DNA of 64,000 bases from Gemmatimonadota bacterium (GTDB lineage Bacteria > Gemmatimonadota > Gemmatimonadetes > Palauibacterales > KS3-K002): positions 40,903 to 104,902 of the forward strand of contig JBDHJS010000007.1 in assembly GCA_039586795.1 (NCBI GenBank), in the 5' to 3' direction. Below the pieces are notes generated by a model. It searched no databases. It was not told the DNA's origin and saw nothing but the letters and a program-made list of their open reading frames with translations. Of the stretch, positions 11,301-19,651 are shown in pieces. The translations under genes were made by a program, and so were the position numbers. Position 1 is the first letter of the stretch, and the number at the start of each line of letters is the position of its first letter.

Positions 11301-11957
11301 CTACAGCTTCTTCACCCAGATATTGCGGAAGTAGATTGGGCTGCGGCTGTCATGGTTCTGCAGGCCGATATATCCGCGTGGGGCGAAGTCGGCGATCTTG
11401 CCCCGAGGTTCGGCCTGCCAGTCGACAACGGTCTCTCCGTTGAGCTCCACCGTGATGCGGTCGCCGATGAAGCTGATGCGGTAGTGATTCCACTCGCCGG
11501 CTGGCCGGAATGCCGCGTGGGTGGGTGCCTCGGCGTCATAGACCGCGGCAGTCTGGTGGATGCCCTCGCCCACATCGTTGATCTGAACTTCGAAGCTGTG
11601 GTAGATGTAGTCGTCGCTGGTCGGTACCCCGGGCACGCGGATGAATATCCCGGAGTTGGTCACTTCGTCCGAACACCTGTACTCGAGGTCGAGGATGAAG
11701 TCGCCATATTCTTCCGCGGCGTACCACATGAGCCCCATCCCACCGTGCCCCTTTAGCACGCCCGTCTCGCGGTCGAGCTCGAAATGGCCCGGCCCGTAGT
11801 GGTTCCATCCGTGTTTGTTGAAGCGGCCGTTATGCTCCCTGAGGATCCGTTCGAAGCCGGGGCCCGGGCTCTCGTCCTGTCTGTCAGTCATGATCTCATA
11901 GGATGCGTACAACCCGACGGGAAGCAACACGATCAAAGCAAGAGTGACCCACCTCAT
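11301..11957 (-). CDS. DUF1080 (3-keto-disaccharide hydrolase family) exported protein
   Basis: N-terminal hydrophobic segment, NSGIFIR, EVQI, GEWNHYRI and GYIGLQNH motifs. Confidence 0.85.
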   Translation of the reverse strand: MRWVTLALIVLLPVGLYASYEIMTDRQDESPGPGFERILREHNGRFNKHGWNHYGPGHFELDRETGVLKGHGGMGLMWYAAEEYGDFILDLEYRCSDEVTNSGIFIRVPGVPTSDDYIYHSFEVQINDVGEGIHQTAAVYDAEAPTHAAFRPAGEWNHYRISFIGDRITVELNGETVVDWQAEPRGKIADFAPRGYIGLQNHDSRSPIYFRNIWVKKL

Positions 11958-12016
11958 GCAAAACCAGCCTTTCCAGTCGTAAACCATCAACGCCACCATT
12001 AGGTCCGTGATTCTTC

Positions 12017-13270
12017 TCACCTCGAGTTCCGGGGGTTCCACTCGCCCTTCGCGACCGCGGGAACGAAGCTTTCGAGGTCCGGCGGTGGGAATGGGATCGT
12101 CTTGCCCTGCTCCGCGCTCATGTAAGCGGTCATGAGAAGCTCGGTCACATTGAGACCGTCGTCGAAGTTCTCGACCGGTCGCTTCCCGGCGAGGAACGAC
12201 CGAACCATGTGACGGTTTTCGCCGATGTAGCCGTACTCGCTCTCCTCATCGGCGACCACCGGCATCAATCCCACCTCGGCGTTTTGCTTCTCCACAAGGT
12301 CCTCACCAGAGTCACCTCGCACCTCTCGGCTGAAGAAGACGCGCGGTCCCGCATCCAGCGAGTTCACCGACAACGAATACTCCGGTCCCAGTAGCTCCAT
12401 GCTGAGGCGCAGGCCCGCACCGACGAAGCACCACGACGTGGTCGCCTCGACGATCCGCTCGTTCCCGTCCGCATCCCGATATTCGACCATGGCCCGGGCG
12501 AAGTCCTCGGCGGGCCGATTGAGGTAGTCGGTTGCGCCGTCACTGTTCTCCGACAGGATCTTCGCGTAATGCGGTTGCTGCCACTTCAGGCAGGAGGTGT
12601 GCGCCGTCACCTTGACCGGCGTCAAGACAGTTCGCTCGGCGCCCGGCGGCGTCAGCAAATGACGAGCGACCTCGACAGAGTGACACATCATGTCGTTGAG
12701 CACGCCGCCGCCCTGGAGCTCTCCCTCCCAGAACCAGGGCATATGAGGGCCGCTGTGCTCCTCCGCCGCGCGAGCCAGGTAGGGCGGTCCGGTCAACGCA
12801 GCGCCCCGAGCCCAGAGGATGTCCTTCCCGCGCACGACGGCGGGCGAAAAGAGCTGGTTTTCCAGATAGCCATCCAGGAGCCCCGCCCGCTGGACCATCT
12901 CGAGCATCTGTCGCGCCTCGGCGGCGTTGCGGCCTAGCGGCTTCTCGCAAGCGACACCTACCAGTTCGCCTTTCCCGCTCTCGATGGCATGGACGATCTC
13001 TTCCATGATCTCGACGCGGGTGAAGTTGGGAGCACAAATCCAGAGCGCATCGATGGCGGGGTCCGCAACCATGTCGGTGACCGTATCGTAGGGCTTCGCA
13101 TCACCGACACCCAGGCTATTCGCCAAGGCCACGGCTTCTTCGACTGTGCCATCGCTCCGGCCGGTGACACCCATGACATCCGCGTCGCGCACAGCTACAA
13201 AAGATCGGACATGAAACTTTCCGACGAACCCACCGCCAACGAACCCAACGCCAAGTCTCTTATTAGCCAT
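12017..13270 (-). CDS. Gfo/Idh/MocA oxidoreductase (cytoplasmic)
   Basis: Rossmann GFVGGGFVG, CEKP and GGGVLNDMMCH motifs. Confidence 0.88.
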   Translation of the reverse strand: MANKRLGVGFVGGGFVGKFHVRSFVAVRDADVMGVTGRSDGTVEEAVALANSLGVGDAKPYDTVTDMVADPAIDALWICAPNFTRVEIMEEIVHAIESGKGELVGVACEKPLGRNAAEARQMLEMVQRAGLLDGYLENQLFSPAVVRGKDILWARGAALTGPPYLARAAEEHSGPHMPWFWEGELQGGGVLNDMMCHSVEVARHLLTPPGAERTVLTPVKVTAHTSCLKWQQPHYAKILSENSDGATDYLNRPAEDFARAMVEYRDADGNERIVEATTSWCFVGAGLRLSMELLGPEYSLSVNSLDAGPRVFFSREVRGDSGEDLVEKQNAEVGLMPVVADEESEYGYIGENRHMVRSFLAGKRPVENFDDGLNVTELLMTAYMSAEQGKTIPFPPPDLESFVPAVAKGEWNPRNSR

Positions 13271-13292: not shown

Positions 13293-14510
13293 TCAAACCG
13301 CAGCGGTTGCCGGCGCCTTTTCTTCTCTGAAGAACAGCAGGAATGCCACGGCACAGATGATCGTCAAAACGCAAGGTACCAGGAACACGTTGGTCCAGTT
13401 TGTTCCGGCATCCGTCGTGAATACATCTTTGATCCAGCCGGCGAACAGGCTGCCGAGGAATCGACCGAATCCGAGGGCGACGATCGCGATCAAGCTTTGC
13501 GCCGATGCCCGAATGTCCGGCGGTGCCACGCTGTCCACGTAGATGAACGCCGCGACGAAGAAGAACACGTAACAGAAGCCGTGCAGCGCCATGGACGCGA
13601 TCACCAGCCAGGCCGGAGCACCGATGGCAAAGATCACGTAGCGGATCGGCCAGGCGATGACGCCGAACGCCAGCGTCTTCCGCATCCCGTACTTCTTGAG
13701 GAAATGGGAGAGCAGGAACGCCATGACGAAGATCTCCGCCACCTGCGCGATCGTCATGACCAGCGGCGTGTTGTTGGGCGAGACACCGATCTTGTCCGAC
13801 TCGAGGAACGGTGCCGTCAGGATGTAGTAGAACTCCAGCTCGGTAGCCACGACGAAGGTGATGCCGATGAAGATCGCGAAGTCCTTCGACTTGAGCATCT
13901 TCAACGACTCAAGGAACGCCCAGGGGTTCACGCCTTCTTTTTGCGGCGGCGTATGCGGAAGCGTGAACGACTGAAGCCCCATGATGATCGAGAACAGACC
14001 GGCGAGGAACAGCATGTCGCCCTGGATGCCAGGCAGCACGTCGCCTTCCACCAGCCAGCGGCCGCCGGTCAACAGCCAACCCGCGGCGATCCAACCCAAC
14101 GTGCCGCCCACTCGAATCCCGCCGAACTCTTCCTCGGAATCGGTGAGATTCATCATGGCGATGGAGTTCGTCAGGGCGAGAGTCGGCGCGTAGACGAGGC
14201 AATAGACGAGCATCAGAATCGCCATCAGGCTGAAGTCGGTCACCCTCGACAGCGCGATCAGCAGGATGCCGCCTGAAAACGCGAGGAACCCGATGACTTT
14301 CTCGGACGCGAAATAGCGGTCGGCGACCTGTCCTCCGACGAACGGAGCGATGATCGTCGCCAGTGGAAGCAAGGCGTAAATCGCTCCGATCTGGAAGCCG
14401 CTGAAGCCGAGTCCGCTATCGCCCAGATACGCCGAGAGCACGGGGGCCCATGAGCCCCAGATGGCGTACTGGAGGAACATCATGATCCAGAGGCGGGTCT
14501 TTGCGCTCAA
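13293..14510 (-). CDS. MFS transporter, nucleoside:H+ symporter (NupG-like) family
   Basis: MMFLQYAIWGSW, GQVADRYF, GTLGWI and LHGFCY motifs, about 12 TMs. TTG start after AGGAG. Confidence 0.88.
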   Translation of the reverse strand: MSAKTRLWIMMFLQYAIWGSWAPVLSAYLGDSGLGFSGFQIGAIYALLPLATIIAPFVGGQVADRYFASEKVIGFLAFSGGILLIALSRVTDFSLMAILMLVYCLVYAPTLALTNSIAMMNLTDSEEEFGGIRVGGTLGWIAAGWLLTGGRWLVEGDVLPGIQGDMLFLAGLFSIIMGLQSFTLPHTPPQKEGVNPWAFLESLKMLKSKDFAIFIGITFVVATELEFYYILTAPFLESDKIGVSPNNTPLVMTIAQVAEIFVMAFLLSHFLKKYGMRKTLAFGVIAWPIRYVIFAIGAPAWLVIASMALHGFCYVFFFVAAFIYVDSVAPPDIRASAQSLIAIVALGFGRFLGSLFAGWIKDVFTTDAGTNWTNVFLVPCVLTIICAVAFLLFFREEKAPATAAV

Positions 14511-14544: not shown

Positions 14545-16152
14545 TTACACGATCCTCCGATTCACGGGATCCCACGTGACTCGGCGACCTTCCATGAACG
14601 AGCGTGTCGCCATGTGACAGGTGATCGCCTCCTCGAAGCCGCGTTCGATATCGCAGCTGACCTGGCCACCGTTGCGAATCACGTCTAACCACTCGGCGAT
14701 ATGGAGGTGGTAGGCGCTGACGCGTCGGCCTCCCCGGTACGTGAAGAGCAGCCCACGGCTGGCGAAGTACTCCTCGGTCGCCGATGTCACCGCATCGATC
14801 CCCCTGAAACCGGGGCGGTAGGTGAACATGGGCAGCGAGGGATCGATGATATCGTCATCGATCTTCTTCTCGTAACGCGTCGAGCTACGGTCGGCAGTGA
14901 TCGTCAAGCCGCTGCCCACCTGCATGGTCGCATCGTGACCCATATACAGCTGGCCGCGGTACTTACCGTTAGCGAGAGTCGCGCTGTAGATCATCGTCAG
15001 GTCGCGATCGGGATACTCGAAGGCGGCCTGGAACACATCCGGCACATCGCGGCCATCCTTGAAGTAGTAGATGCCGCCAGTCGCGACGGCGCTGTGTGGG
15101 ATACCGACTTCGAGAATCTGGTTCACCGCGTCGAACTCGTGGGACAGCAGGTCACCGGAGAGGCCGGTACCGTAGTCGTACCAGCAACGCCACCGGAAGA
15201 ATCTCTCGAGGCTGAACGGTACCTTATTGGGCGCCGGACCCTGAAACAGATCCCAGTCGATGGTGTTCTCATTGCCCTCTTCGTGAATGTCGTACTGCCA
15301 GGCGCCCGTTGGACTGTTCCGGTTCGTTGTAGTCTCGACAAGCGTGATCGGGCCGAGGATGTCATGGTCCATTATCTCCCGGGCCTTTATGTGGGCCTCG
15401 GACTGGCGGTTCTGATGTCCCAACTGGAAGACGATGTCCGAGTTGGTCACGGCATCGTACATCGCGTGCGCCTCTTCCTCCGTGCGAGTCATGCACTTCT
15501 CGCAGTATACGTGCTTACCAGCCGCCGCCGCGTCGACTGTCATCTGGGAGTGCCAGTGGTCCGGCGTTGCGATGATCACGGCATCGACGTCGGGACTATC
15601 GAGGAGATCCTGATAGTTGACGAAGCGTGTCGCGCCCGCGCCCGCCGGTGCGCCACCGGGCCGCACATCGTTTTTTGAGGCGGCGATGCCGCGCTCGGCT
15701 CTGACGTCGAACACGTCGCACACAGCCGTGAGTTCGACATTCAGATCATCCTGTGCGAGCCAGTTCTCCAGCCGTTTGTTCTTTGGATCCTCCTCAGCGG
15801 CCTTCCTCAGGTCCTCTACCCAATCGGGAGGAGCGAAACCAGCGTTCCTCAGCAGCGATTGGCCTTCTCCACCGTTGCCGATGATGCCCAGCCGGATTCG
15901 ATCGCCTGGCGGACGCGAGATGGCCTCGGGAATGACGGCCGGCGCGCCCTCCGTGACACCCAGCTCGGACAGGATCTCGCTGCGCCTGAAATCGTCCTCG
16001 GCCTTCTTCTTCAGAAAACCGTAGAAGAACACGCCGAGGACGGGAATCGAGGCCAGCGCCTTGAGCACATCCCTGCGGTTTATGCCGCCAGTCGCACCGG
16101 ATTCGGGCGTTCCGGAGTGGTTCATGCCTGTGTCTTTCTTCTCGGGTTCCAT
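14545..16152 (-). CDS. Gfo/Idh/MocA oxidoreductase with twin-arginine-like N-terminus
   Basis: NRRDVLK plus hydrophobic helix, GIIGNGG, IATPDHWH, YCEK and WRCWYDYGTG motifs. Confidence 0.88.
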   Translation of the reverse strand: MEPEKKDTGMNHSGTPESGATGGINRRDVLKALASIPVLGVFFYGFLKKKAEDDFRRSEILSELGVTEGAPAVIPEAISRPPGDRIRLGIIGNGGEGQSLLRNAGFAPPDWVEDLRKAAEEDPKNKRLENWLAQDDLNVELTAVCDVFDVRAERGIAASKNDVRPGGAPAGAGATRFVNYQDLLDSPDVDAVIIATPDHWHSQMTVDAAAAGKHVYCEKCMTRTEEEAHAMYDAVTNSDIVFQLGHQNRQSEAHIKAREIMDHDILGPITLVETTTNRNSPTGAWQYDIHEEGNENTIDWDLFQGPAPNKVPFSLERFFRWRCWYDYGTGLSGDLLSHEFDAVNQILEVGIPHSAVATGGIYYFKDGRDVPDVFQAAFEYPDRDLTMIYSATLANGKYRGQLYMGHDATMQVGSGLTITADRSSTRYEKKIDDDIIDPSLPMFTYRPGFRGIDAVTSATEEYFASRGLLFTYRGGRRVSAYHLHIAEWLDVIRNGGQVSCDIERGFEEAITCHMATRSFMEGRRVTWDPVNRRIV

Positions 16153-16199
16153 CTTCTCAACTCCCGCGCTGTCGTTGCTTCATGCGAAGGCCACGCTCA

Positions 16200-16718
16200 C
16201 TACGCGGCCGCAGGCATGCTGGCGGCCTGCTCACCCGTTCGTTTCTTCCAGAAGATCAGCCGGTCCAGTCCGACGATCTGGCCGGTGGGGAACGCCAGCG
16301 TGACGAACAGGGCGGCAAGCTCAATGAGTGTCTTGTTGACGATGATGTAGTTGCCTTCCCTGGGCATGGAGTAGGTGTAGCCCGGGAACGGCGGGTTAGC
16401 TACGTAGTAGAGGCAAAGCAAGACGATCCCCGCGATGACCGCGGCACGGGTCAAGCAACCCAGCAGCAGCCCCAGTCCGATCGCGATCAATCCCCAGGTG
16501 TTCAGGAAATCGACGAAGCCAAGCATCCCCGGGCTGGCAGAAATCGATTGGAAGATACCTGAGAATAGCCATCTCGAGTCCGCCAAGAACTCGGCAGATG
16601 TCCAGTAGGGGTTGATCGCCTTGGCAATTCCCTCGTAGAGGAAATGCCATCCGATCAGCATGCGCAGCGCTACAAGCGCCGTCGTTTGAAAGTTCGAGTA
16701 GTCCGTCGCCCGCTGCAT
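16200..16718 (-). CDS. DoxX family membrane protein
   Basis: LRMLIGWHFLYEGIAK, GLGLLLG and EGNYIIVNKTLIE motifs, about 4 TMs. Confidence 0.85.
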   Translation of the reverse strand: MQRATDYSNFQTTALVALRMLIGWHFLYEGIAKAINPYWTSAEFLADSRWLFSGIFQSISASPGMLGFVDFLNTWGLIAIGLGLLLGCLTRAAVIAGIVLLCLYYVANPPFPGYTYSMPREGNYIIVNKTLIELAALFVTLAFPTGQIVGLDRLIFWKKRTGEQAASMPAAA

Positions 16719-16774
16719 CGCACACCTACCTTCCGTACTCTGTCTACGGTTACTGTCTGACGCCTATCGTCTTC

Positions 16775-17788
16775 TTATCCTCCCCATCCCCGCGACTTCC
16801 ACTTTCCACCACGCGCGTCGACAACAAGGCACTCGCACTGAGGTATCGCGCTGACGAATCTGACACCCGCCTGCGGGTTCATGATGAAAATGCTCGTGGC
16901 TAGCGCGTCAGCTGCCATCGCCGTCGGCGCTATCACCGAGACGCTCTTGCTTAAGTCCGGAGACGCACCGGTTCTCGAGTTAACTATGTGGTGGTACAAC
17001 CGCTCGTGGTCGAAATAGATTTCATAGCTTCCGGAGGTCGCCACCGCACCGTCACCCATTTGAATGATGTCCGGGTAGTCACCTTCCTTCTCCGGGTCCT
17101 GCACCGCTACGGCCCACGGCTGCCCCCCTTCTTTGGCGCCCGCCGTACGCACATCACCGCCGGCGTTGATCAGGTAAGACTTTAGGCCGGACCGCGAGAG
17201 GCTTTCCGATACTCTGTCGACGATGAACCCCTTTGCGATACCGTCGAGCGTGATGCCCATGCCTTGTCTGCGGAAGCGTATCGCGTTGGGTGAGAGCTCT
17301 ATGTGGCGTGAGCCAACCAGCTCCAGGATATCCGCAACTTCTCGTTCTTCCGGTCTTGCCGTATTCGTGCTGAAGAGGTCGACGAGCGGCTTCACCGTTA
17401 CGTCGAACGCGCCACGGCTCAGCCGGTGGTAGTGCAAAGCGCGACCCACAACGCGGGTTACCTCGGGCGGTGAATCGAGCAGCCGACCCTGACGATTCAG
17501 GTCCGAGACGGCCGACGCACCATCGAACCGATTGAACAGCGCGATTCGGCGGTCCATCTCTCGAAAAGCCTTCCCGATCGCATCCTCCGCCAGATCACGC
17601 GATCGATGAAGCGCGGTGATCGAGATGAACGTTCCCATCGCTGGGCGTGCGCATGTCACCTTAACGGTACGTCGATCGACCCGCGTCGCCGCCGTCCTGA
17701 CCGGGGACACTTCGACGCGCTCGAGGCCCAGGTCGGCAAGCACCGAGAGCTTCCGGGCGATCCGAGCCGCGTCGTTCATGTCCTGCAT
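16775..17788 (-). CDS. apbE: FAD:protein FMN transferase
   Basis: AMGT, GAFDVTV, DGIAKGF, NAGGD, ATSGSYE, HHI and ADALAT motifs. Confidence 0.93.
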   Translation of the reverse strand: MQDMNDAARIARKLSVLADLGLERVEVSPVRTAATRVDRRTVKVTCARPAMGTFISITALHRSRDLAEDAIGKAFREMDRRIALFNRFDGASAVSDLNRQGRLLDSPPEVTRVVGRALHYHRLSRGAFDVTVKPLVDLFSTNTARPEEREVADILELVGSRHIELSPNAIRFRRQGMGITLDGIAKGFIVDRVSESLSRSGLKSYLINAGGDVRTAGAKEGGQPWAVAVQDPEKEGDYPDIIQMGDGAVATSGSYEIYFDHERLYHHIVNSRTGASPDLSKSVSVIAPTAMAADALATSIFIMNPQAGVRFVSAIPQCECLVVDARGGKWKSRGWGG

Positions 17789-18745
17789 CTAGCGGCGTTC
17801 CTCCGCGAGCTGATCGCGGGTCCGCTCCAGGAGCGTCTTCGTCGCGCGGATCCCATCCGGCTCGCTCAGGCGGCTACCCTCGTACTCGATCCCCACGTAC
17901 CCGTGATAGCCGGCATCCAGAACGATTCCCAACATGCGTTTGTAGTCGGTATGAATCTCGTTGCCTTGCTCGTCGAAATCGTGTGATTTTGCGCTTACCG
18001 CCTTCGCGTAGGGCATCATCTCCTGGACACCCAGGTAGCGATCGTACCAGACATCCTCCGCGATTCGGAAGTTGCCGAAGTCCGGAAGCGTCCCACAGCG
18101 CGGACTGCCGACCGCCTCGATGACACTCGCTAGCCAGGCTCCATTCGACGACAATCCACCGTGGTTTTCGATGATGACGTTGATGTCGAAGGCCGAAGCC
18201 TCTTCCGTCAGCCGCCGTAACCCATCAACCGCTAGCTCCCGCTGCTCCTCCGGTGTCCCCTCCGAGCGCGCATTGACTCGAATCGAATGACAGCCGAGAA
18301 ACTTGGCCGCGTGAATCCACCGGTGATGGTTCAGAACCGCTCGCAGGCGCTCGACCTGGTCCGGCGCTCCCAGCGCGCCCTCACCGTCAACCATGATGAG
18401 AAGGCTCTTCACGCCATTGTCGTCCGCCCGAAGTTTCAACTCGGACAGATAAGCCTCGTCCTCCGCCTTGTCCTTGAAGAAAGAGTTCACGTACTCGACG
18501 GCGTCGAGTCCGTAGTCAACACGGGCGACGCGGGGAAATTCGAGCGCGTCGAGTTCGCCGGCGTTGAGCGTACGGTGCAGCGACCACTGGGCGAGGGAGA
18601 CTTTGAACAACGGCTGGTTAGCCGGCGGTATATGACCGCAGCCCGTCAGAAACGAGGGGCCCGCCAGGTAGGTTGCCGGGGTAGCCATTGCGATGCCCGC
18701 CAAGAACCGGCGACGGCTCATAGAACCTCGCGACGGTAGAACCAT
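17789..18745 (-). CDS. Sugar phosphate isomerase/epimerase-family TIM barrel, Tat signal
   Basis: [27 protein letters not shown] and GIEYEG motifs. Start 18745 or 18721. Confidence 0.88.
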
Positions 18746-18928: not shown

Positions 18929-19516
18929 TTAGCGTGTGGCCTGGTAGTAAGGATTGGAGCCCATCGAGTGGTCGGTGATATCGATCACTTCCGAGACCTC
19001 AGGGAACGCCTCGCGGATCAGCCTTTCGACCCCCTGCTTCAGCGTAACCGTGGCCATCCCACACCCCTGGCAGCCGCCGGATAGCTGGACGTAAACCACG
19101 TTGTCCCTCACATCCACTAGAACGATCCGCCCACCATGCGCCGCAACTGCCGGGTTGATCTGAGCCTCCATAAACTGAGCGACCCTCTGGGCCAGCTCAC
19201 CGCTGGGCGGCTCCGAGCCGATCGGCTTGATGTTCGGGTTCTCGACCTGAAAGCCGCCACCACCCATCGACTCGACCCAATCTACCGAGGCGCCCTCCAG
19301 CTTTTCGACGCTCGCCTGGTCCACATAGACCTTGAACCCGTCCGCGTCGAAGATCGTGTCATCGGGCTGTTGGTCGGACTCGTCCACCAGCATGAGCTCG
19401 TACTGAGGCGCCAGCGGGCTGCCCGAGTGGACGGCGATGCGCAGCGCCACACCGCCCTCTTCTTCTTGAATGAACGACAGCACCCGCTCCCGGGCCTTGT
19501 CGGTGAACGTCAGCAT
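18929..19516 (-). CDS. nfuA: Fe-S biogenesis protein NfuA
   Basis: Degenerate A-type domain plus NifU domain (HGG...GGCQGCG...DITDH). GAGGT SD before ATG 19516. Confidence 0.88.
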   Translation of the reverse strand: MLTFTDKARERVLSFIQEEEGGVALRIAVHSGSPLAPQYELMLVDESDQQPDDTIFDADGFKVYVDQASVEKLEGASVDWVESMGGGGFQVENPNIKPIGSEPPSGELAQRVAQFMEAQINPAVAAHGGRIVLVDVRDNVVYVQLSGGCQGCGMATVTLKQGVERLIREAFPEVSEVIDITDHSMGSNPYYQATR

Positions 19517-19651
19517 CCGATACCTCACGAAGCTCTGGGTCCTCTGGGTGGCCACACTTCTGGCCTTTCGCTCTGAAACTACTGTAATATAGCAGCGTGG
19601 CCGAGGAGCGCAGCCGGTAGGAAATCCAGCCGGTCGACCCGGAGGTGGCGG

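Follow-up and report, generated by a model that had tools for sequence, protein, structure and literature searches.

A twin-arginine Gfo/Idh/MocA dehydrogenase encoded with DoxX and ApbE in a Gemmatimonadota bacterium, a candidate new class of ApbE substrate

Organization of the Gene Cluster

The 64,000-nucleotide stretch of Gemmatimonadota DNA analyzed here (the window) contains a run of seven genes on the minus strand, which encode a TIM-barrel protein, a flavin transferase (ApbE), a DoxX-family membrane protein, a Gfo/Idh/MocA dehydrogenase, an MFS transporter, a second Gfo/Idh/MocA protein and a DUF1080 protein. The closest named homologs are from Gemmatimonadota. The first Gfo/Idh/MocA protein (hereafter Gfo) possesses a DAVTSAT sequence, and doxX and apbE lie directly upstream on the same strand, which confirms what the initial annotation of this DNA had described. 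We propose that Gfo, to which flavin mononucleotide (FMN) would be covalently attached, most probably represents a class of ApbE substrate that is new, and that its operon is a variant oxidative glycoside-cleavage cluster.

In the genome, which is 97.8% complete, apbE occurs three times: next to an Rnf cluster, next to an FMN_bind gene and in this operon. Its known ApbE clients are served by their own signal-bearing ApbEs. The profiles of FMN_bind (PF04205) and RnfD/NqrB (PF03116) have no match on the contig of the window, in agreement with the initial observation that no such client lies nearby; they match only on contigs C79 and C27, each time beside an apbE of its own, and DUF2271 has no match in the genome. 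The FMN_bind protein on C27 (L002, G000:C27:76670-76882) contains no D..[ST].A[ST] match in a pattern scan, and a 500-residue open reading frame (ORF) on C64 (L267, G000:C64:24893-26392), which has no Pfam match, contains DMISGAT.

Table 1. Coordinates of the operon genes and of the features of Gfo in the window.
Feature	Position (nt)	Strand	Remarks
TIM-barrel protein	17789..18745	-	PF01261; twin-arginine translocation (Tat) signal RRRFLA in sequence
apbE, flavin transferase, 337 aa	16775..17788	-	PF02424, 244 bits
doxX, DoxX-family four-helix membrane protein, 172 aa	16200..16718	-	PF07681
Gfo/Idh/MocA dehydrogenase P0001 (Gfo), 535 aa	14545..16152	-	PF01408/PF02894
Twin-arginine RRDVLK (residues 26-31) and hydrophobic helix of Gfo	16012..16077	-	Cleavage site not evident
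Clade-specific insert of Gfo with motif, about residues 421-480	14713..14892	-	Limits approximate; shorter or unrelated in motif-less relatives
DAVTSAT, D453-T459, predicted flavinylation site T459	14776..14796	-	Last residue Thr/Ser in 130/130 loci
MFS transporter, Nuc_H_symport family	13293..14510	-	PF03825; in 60/80 GTDB loci
Second Gfo/Idh/MocA protein	12017..13270	-	PF01408; without export signal or motif
DUF1080/3-keto-disaccharide hydrolase-family protein	11301..12041	-	PF06439, 135 bits; start codon uncertain

Gfo and Its Motif-Bearing Insert

Gfo has the Rossmann GxGxxG motif, the EK motif, the C-terminal α/β domain and the Asp-x3-His of the Gfo/Idh/MocA family, and residues G92/G94/G97, D146, E218-K219, Q247, D334 and H338 are conserved at 90% or more in alignment A1. 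The glucoside-3-dehydrogenase AL3 (PDB 8TDF) is the best match of Gfo in both sequence and fold, and the sequence and profile alignments between the two end ahead of the insert. Gfo scores 119 bits against NF058561, the family of the BT2158/AL3 glycoside 3-dehydrogenases, for which the curated cut-off is 750, and by score it is not a member. It is the neighboring genes that suggest, by analogy, that Gfo may oxidize glycosides at C3.

Export signals were judged throughout from sequence pattern and hydrophobicity. The RR pattern is found in 114 of the 121 clade proteins whose N-terminus could be scored, and the AlphaFold2 model of Gfo (145 sequences; mean predicted local distance difference test score, pLDDT, 88.7) has a long helix at residues 37-64. 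The enzyme had been described initially as exported. Tat targeting is predicted, and Gfo looks anchored in the membrane via its uncleaved twin-arginine helix instead of being set free in the periplasm.

A rough proteome of this genome (3317 ORFs, about 1.37 million residues) contains 17 matches to the pattern D..[ST][GS]A[ST], or 0.007 per 535 residues, and 10 other motif-matching proteins of the genome, one of them without any Pfam match, have no flavoprotein-family Pfam match. The single DAVTSAT match alone is only suggestive, and the case rests on conservation and context. Across 130 loci of the clade (129 distinct loci), where the motif was found by pattern in 129 and read by eye in one, it ends with Thr at 112 loci and with Ser at 18. 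Among 150 representatives of 50%-identity clusters, 90 have a length of at least 400 residues and were aligned. Fifteen of these 90 keep the motif at 38-62% identity, in the forms DAVTSAT, DAISSAT, DAVTTPT, DGISSAT, EAITSAT and, twice, the canonical DAVSGAT; six retain the insert, and their motif, though degenerate, also terminates in Ser or Thr, and 69 have no motif at that place. The canonical Gly forms DAVSGAT and DGISGAT recur in separate lineages. The motif clade is also carried by cultured Bacteroidota.

DoxX, ApbE, the TIM-barrel protein, the MFS transporter, the DUF1080 protein and the second Gfo/Idh/MocA protein were ruled out as alternative carriers of the motif by counts of a relaxed pattern, which was fitted post hoc on data already seen. 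This pattern matches 111 of the 111 clade proteins then in hand; elsewhere it matches 3/99 DoxX, 4/55 ApbE, 0/19 TIM-barrel, 1/68 MFS, 0/54 DUF1080 and 0/58 second Gfo/Idh/MocA proteins.

The strict form D-x-x-[ST]-G-A-[ST] does not describe Gfo, which has Ser at the Gly position, and the worry raised by this residue is answered by the solved RnfD chains. The site in Gfo is of the non-Gly kind tolerated in RnfD, with a terminal Thr or Ser that is conserved throughout the clade: RnfD has DGVTTAT in 7ZC6, DTVTTAT in 9ERI and DAVTAAT in this genome. Thr153 of the 7ZC6 RnfD is described as FMN-bonded (PMC9588780), and a Gly-to-Ala change in the motif cuts flavinylation to about half (PMC12052999). 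By analogy, Ser in place of Gly is probably no obstacle.

In the Gfo model only one internal segment, residues 450-461, has pLDDT values below 50. It contains T459, which is modelled at the start of a helix that begins at residue 458. The loop resembles the helix-start site of RnfG, whose flavin site lies at a helix N-terminus (PMC9588780), and a loop without its ligand; an ordinary helix cap would fit the model too. Known ApbE substrates (FMN_bind/NqrC/RnfG, NqrB/RnfD, DUF2271, DUF3570, Flavodoxin_4 and FMN_red) carry D-x-x-[ST]-x-A-[ST] at a helix start, where the model places T459 with low confidence, and, as here, have apbE in the cluster (PMC8238504, PMC11334425, PMC12052999). As in Flavodoxin_4, the motif of Gfo is found on an insertion in a fold that is normally without it. 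Unlike all of these substrates, the host is a nicotinamide adenine dinucleotide (NAD)-dependent Gfo/Idh/MocA protein without a flavin-binding ancestor, and the partner is DoxX.

Co-Occurrence of doxX and apbE with the Motif

Within the 130 clade loci, doxX is found in 115 and apbE in 69. The GTDB scan has doxX in 76 and apbE in 53 of 80 loci, and where enough upstream DNA is available the counts are 62/62 for doxX (800 nt) and 44/51 for apbE (3.5 kb). Both genes are found in 3/3 relatives, while the Acidobacteriota set (phylum of G044) has doxX in 14/14 and apbE in 13/14 loci and the Bacteroidota set (phylum of G041) has doxX in 22/28.

Motif-less paralogs from the phylum of G044 served as a control (the best 26 of about 130 loci): none has doxX and one has apbE. 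This sole exception is L219, where a motif-bearing FGE gene lies directly upstream of apbE. In one genus of the same order, Gfo is represented only by a motif-less paralog (36% identity), and motif, doxX and apbE are all absent from the 6 of its 12 loci that were examined. In a set of 41 related genomes, 16 encode the Gfo ortholog (E < 1e-200) together with the dedicated ApbE (at least 47% identity) and 23 encode neither; in the discordant genome G019, apbE-doxX is cut by a contig end. Together, conservation, matched controls and gene context support well the initial proposal that Gfo is the predicted client of ApbE, and we consider it likely that Gfo carries covalent FMN.

The 98 loci that have neither the motif clade nor the second subfamily of Gfo described below include none with doxX and 13 with apbE. 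Three of these apbE genes (L096, L097 and L114) accompany sister-clade Gfos with the insert, in L113 and L153 apbE is immediately followed by the start of another Gfo, which the contig end truncates, the contigs of L116, L131, L138, L156 and L163 end soon after apbE, L166 and L171 have motif-less Gfos next to apbE but show no client that could be identified, and the thirteenth is L219. A metagenome scan based on the alignment of the sister clade found only three sister-clade loci among 79. Several observations accompany these loci. The Gfos of L096, L097 and L114 have the degenerate motifs AAPS, GNPS and TSET, and each is adjoined by apbE, in convergent or co-directional orientation. At L166:8938-11862 and L171:8559-11309 the gene after apbE encodes a secreted protein with MSGAT or MSSAT and a length of about 900 residues, and the homolog of this protein in L162 has no such match. 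Two marine loci (L099:2583-5600 and L105:5899-8810, the latter after a SusD gene) encode Gfos with the canonical DGISGAT/DAVSGAT without doxX or apbE, and the next gene encodes a twin-arginine, flavin adenine dinucleotide (FAD)-dependent oxidoreductase (PF12831).

Predicted Localization of ApbE

The core motifs ATSG, YHHIVN and ADALAT are intact in the operon ApbE. It has no evident signal peptide, as neither a hydrophobic nor a twin-arginine segment was found at its N-terminus, and the co-directional ApbE orthologs are likewise without a signal-like N-terminus. Signal-like N-termini are found in the other two ApbEs of the genome and in the divergently encoded ApbEs of Aminicenantes-labelled loci. 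The operon ApbE is thus likely to be cytoplasmic, judging from its sequence, which would fit a client that folds with its cofactors prior to Tat export. Cytosolic ApbEs exist (PMC12052999). That of Klebsiella pneumoniae is also a signal-less ApbE with a dedicated client, but this client is a cytoplasmic fumarate reductase (PMC12052999), whereas the client proposed here would be exported by Tat after its flavinylation. The ApbEs next to insert-bearing Gfos are spread over three or more branches of a rough tree (FastTree, midpoint-rooted, topology not tested), which suggests that apbE was recruited repeatedly and perhaps independently.

Other Proteins of the Operon

The components of the oxidative (3-keto) glycoside-cleavage cluster are all present: a Tat-targeted Gfo, a TIM-barrel protein, a DUF1080 protein and a cytosolic second Gfo/Idh/MocA protein. 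The TIM-barrel protein is likely to be of the 3-keto-glycoside lyase/hydratase type, its role being assigned by analogy with AL1/BT1. The DUF1080 protein has a hydrophobic segment at its N-terminus, and its family has been shown to be a 3-keto-glucoside lyase/hydratase (bioRxiv 10.1101/2024.03.25.586180). The MFS transporter is likely to import the cleaved sugar, and the second Gfo/Idh/MocA protein is likely a cytoplasmic keto-sugar reductase, as its homologs across the loci have the RR signal in 0/56 and the motif in 0/58 cases. The operon resembles the AL3/BT2158 cluster in these neighbors as well as in the fold, Tat targeting and bound-NAD-type active-site residues of Gfo. It differs in the low identity of Gfo (about 19% by structure alignment, below the family cut-off) and in the extra anchor, motif insert, doxX and apbE. 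A gene for an NfuA-like Fe-S carrier (18929-19555 of the window, minus strand) lies upstream of the operon and adjoins it in 7/80 GTDB loci, all of them close relatives.

DoxX as a Candidate Electron Outlet

DoxX has four main helices, and its His25 (nt 16644-16646) is invariant in 93/93 sequences, as are, or nearly so, several intramembrane charged residues. In-frame fusions of DoxX to Gfo occur in P0120 and L069 (L069:6044-8548), of which L069 may be a sequence error; in them the twin-arginine helix would be internal and would follow four membrane helices, and they may be Sec-plus-Tat polytopic proteins. A sequence search with DoxX against PDB gave no match, and a wide fold search returned no redox protein among its top rows, a result that excludes nothing. 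The protein matches PF07681 only and not the DoxD profile, and the scanned operon proteins do not include a DoxA; the nearest Atlas clusters of DoxX carry DoxX/DoxD labels, which are automatic names. DoxD, to which DoxX is related, is part of a quinone-reducing enzyme (PMC6335251). This thiosulfate:quinone oxidoreductase, DoxDA, likewise combines a small DoxX/DoxD-type membrane subunit, an outward-facing partner and a link to quinone, but its partner and substrate are different and it has no flavin transferase.

In a prediction of the Gfo-DoxX complex that had been suggested initially, the pair scored 0.48, while the best control scored 0.00, with contact agreement of at least 62% and partner pLDDT of at least 82. 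In the calibration, 116/157 solved and 2/215 mismatched pairs reached the mark, but only 18 of the 157 solved pairs and both mismatches did so at scores of 0.60 or lower; NAD and FMN were included in the Gfo-DoxX run, unlike in the calibration runs. The prediction is weak support for a complex. The proposed passage of electrons through DoxX is the weakest step of the initial proposal; adjacency, fusions, a single invariant His and the weak score of the complex speak for it. Binding and reduction of quinone by DoxX are predicted, and the sole pointer to them is His25.

Parallel Architectures

A second subfamily of Gfo, whose named homologs are from Armatimonadota, has a signal-less apbE upstream in 8/8 loci (L148:8324-9568, L118, L127, L129, L136, L137, L155 and L162) and no doxX. 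Within the equivalent insert, a single position holds Thr in 100 and Ser in 20 of 120 homologs, while the residues around it vary. The Asp lies four, not six, residues back, and the motif is not canonical (LDAGAT, LDADVT and IASAT).

The FGE-domain gene upstream of apbE in L219 (L219:3981-4892, minus strand) contains DAVSRPT. Among 120 homologs of this family, the last residue is Thr in 117 and Ser in 3, Gly is found in 103, and the residue before the Thr is Pro in 78 and Ala in 42, a mix that makes the DAVTTPT variant of Gfo plausible too. Long forms account for 98 of the 120; four CxxCH motifs are found in 84 of these long forms, and Pfam assigns them to NapC/NirT. Of 42 Bacteroidota FGE matches, 20 were examined: 15 are the four-heme form with the motif, 12 of these 15 lie directly upstream of a Gfo, and no apbE was found in the stretches examined. 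In the present genome the FGE protein finds no match. Related clusters thus couple an FGE domain with the motif to a recognized cytochrome of the quinone pool, an analogy in favor of the proposed logic. The FGE-sulfatase-domain proteins (L219, L244-L262 and P0415-P0534) have a motif close to the canonical one, in most cases a fused four-heme NapC/NirT domain and a place upstream of Gfo genes, and in L260 a NapC-FGE module and doxX-gfo are found in one cluster.

What is new here are these two parallel architectures, the second subfamily of Gfo behind apbE and the motif-bearing FGE-NapC/NirT. A literature search, which covered only a minority of subscription papers, found no publication that joins ApbE flavinylation with DoxX or Gfo/Idh/MocA proteins, nothing related on FGE, ApbE and flavin, and, among the papers listed for DoxX and quinone, nothing on the pairing described here. 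DoxX and Gfo are unnamed in the main-text parts covered of PMC8238504 and PMC11334425, as is DoxX in those of PMC12052999, and the text of the eLife supplement, which perhaps does not cover the full gene-cluster table, has no match.

Alternative Explanations

On balance, we favor, by a modest degree of belief, a membrane-anchored, periplasm-facing NAD-type sugar dehydrogenase with covalent FMN, from which electrons pass via DoxX to the quinone pool. A number of findings weigh against it. The initial annotation had proposed to test homologs for the motif and its company. The motif is conserved as expected, and the co-occurrence with apbE holds only in part: 33 motif-bearing loci have no apbE nearby, comprising 28 from Bacteroidota (adjacent apbE 0/28) and five from metagenomes (apbE 0/5, doxX 0/5), and at the level of single loci this agrees with part of what the initial annotation had named as refuting. 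No doxX is seen in these five and in 6/28 Bacteroidota motif loci, some of them cut by contig ends. As 111/113 genomes of the Bacteroidota sample have apbE somewhere, co-occurrence at the genome level is uninformative in this phylum. The single-contig relative G016 keeps doxX-gfo without a dedicated apbE, the co-occurrence counts come from related genomes and loci that are not independent, and the sister clade has the insert yet a degenerate motif. The near invariance of the motif in 120 close sequences (69-100% identity) was rejected as stand-alone evidence because 36% of all columns are equally conserved (at least 97%) in them. In-gel UV in the 7ZC6 paper showed RnfG only, with no RnfD band (PMC9588780). 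AL3/BT2158 recycle bound NAD on 3-keto sugars with no flavin (PMC8121099; bioRxiv 10.1101/2024.03.25.586180), and glucose-fructose oxidoreductase also turns over without flavin. Ser457-Ala/Pro458-Thr459 is compatible with an ordinary helix cap. A redox role of DoxX is weakly supported, and in fold this protein best matches NACHO/TMEM35A, an assembly factor that has no redox function, at a level within the chance range of helical bundles (Z 11.6, rmsd 3.7, 126 aligned).

The NACHO match, the motif-bearing Gfos without doxX (including L099 and L105, followed by the Tat FAD-dependent oxidoreductase), the absence of doxX from all eight loci of the second subfamily and the combination of doxX-gfo with a NapC-FGE gene in L260 would also be expected if Gfo were flavinylated and DoxX served only as an anchor or assembly factor for the Tat helix, the FMN electrons passing to NapC/NirT or a soluble cytochrome, to another flavoprotein or to oxygen. 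This appears unlikely, though it deserves serious consideration, as the invariant His25 and the nearly invariant intramembrane charges, together with the place of DoxD in a quinone-reducing enzyme (PMC6335251) and the DoxX/DoxD labels of the Atlas clusters, speak for more than anchoring. The example of AL3/BT2158, the chance motif matches in unrelated proteins, the 33 loci without adjacent apbE, and L166 and L171 leave some room for the motif being a structural element, such as a helix cap or an active-site lid, with NAD recycled on 3-keto sugars and ApbE serving another protein. We regard this as improbable, since the motif is kept in no other protein of the operon, canonical Gly forms recur in separate lineages, no internal segment of the model other than the motif loop has low confidence and the dedicated apbE tracks Gfo over 41 genomes. 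Reduction of NAD from quinol is energetically uphill, judging from redox potentials, and counts against a flavinylated module that works in reverse, with membrane electrons reducing a periplasmic keto-compound. Such a reversal, or a substrate other than a glycoside, e.g., inositol or a nucleoside, would be in keeping with the low score against the BT_2158 family (119 vs. 750 bits), with a transporter of the nucleoside-symporter family and with most characterized ApbE systems, which send electrons outward (PMC8238504). It is nevertheless very improbable, given that the neighbors belong to 3-keto-glycoside lyase families and a signal-less second Gfo/Idh/MocA protein is available as reductase.

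Proposed Mechanism and Implications

For the favored respiratory route via DoxX, the signal-less ApbE would likely attach FMN to T459 of the folded Gfo in the cytoplasm, followed by Tat export; lineages without an adjacent apbE would use an ApbE encoded elsewhere. Outside, Gfo would quite probably oxidize the C3 of a glycoside, the DUF1080 and TIM-barrel proteins would perform elimination and hydration, the MFS transporter would import the keto-sugar and the second Gfo/Idh/MocA protein would reduce it inside. The transporter would split outer oxidation from inner reduction and therefore leave the outer enzyme reduced, and because the product is taken into the cytoplasm, this enzyme would need another oxidant. 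We think it fairly probable that a mobile FMN loop would swing to the sugar site, take the hydride and then move to DoxX, where His25 would bind heme or quinone. The FMN would thereby re-oxidize the bound NADH and close the cycle of the outer enzyme. The initial annotation had invoked the flavin to explain how an exported NAD enzyme turns over; a flavin is not required for this, because AL3/BT2158 use 3-keto sugars to recycle the NAD that they bind.

The operon bears on an open point of the recently described oxidative glycoside pathway, namely by what means the cell re-oxidizes the NADH to which the exported dehydrogenase binds tightly. AL3/BT3 bind NAD tightly, and its re-oxidation is rate-limiting in vitro, with a gain of more than 100-fold with a 3-keto-sugar oxidant; the authors prefer recycling on 3-ketoglucose and allow specialized proteins such as cytochromes (bioRxiv 10.1101/2024.03.25.586180). 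We tentatively suggest, with somewhat more doubt than belief, that oxidative glycoside-cleavage clusters of multiple phyla may be respiratory, with the NADH of exported Gfos drained via an ApbE-attached FMN on a mobile arm in at least three builds: Gfo with DoxX as a His-ligated outlet, the second subfamily of Gfo, and FGE fused to a NapC/NirT tetraheme cytochrome. Such clusters would encode an undescribed class of periplasmic sugar:quinone oxidoreductase to which the flavin is added in the cytoplasm before Tat export. If the mechanism proposed for the operon is true, a class of NAD-dependent enzymes would join the ApbE substrates, and a subfamily of DoxX would gain a function.

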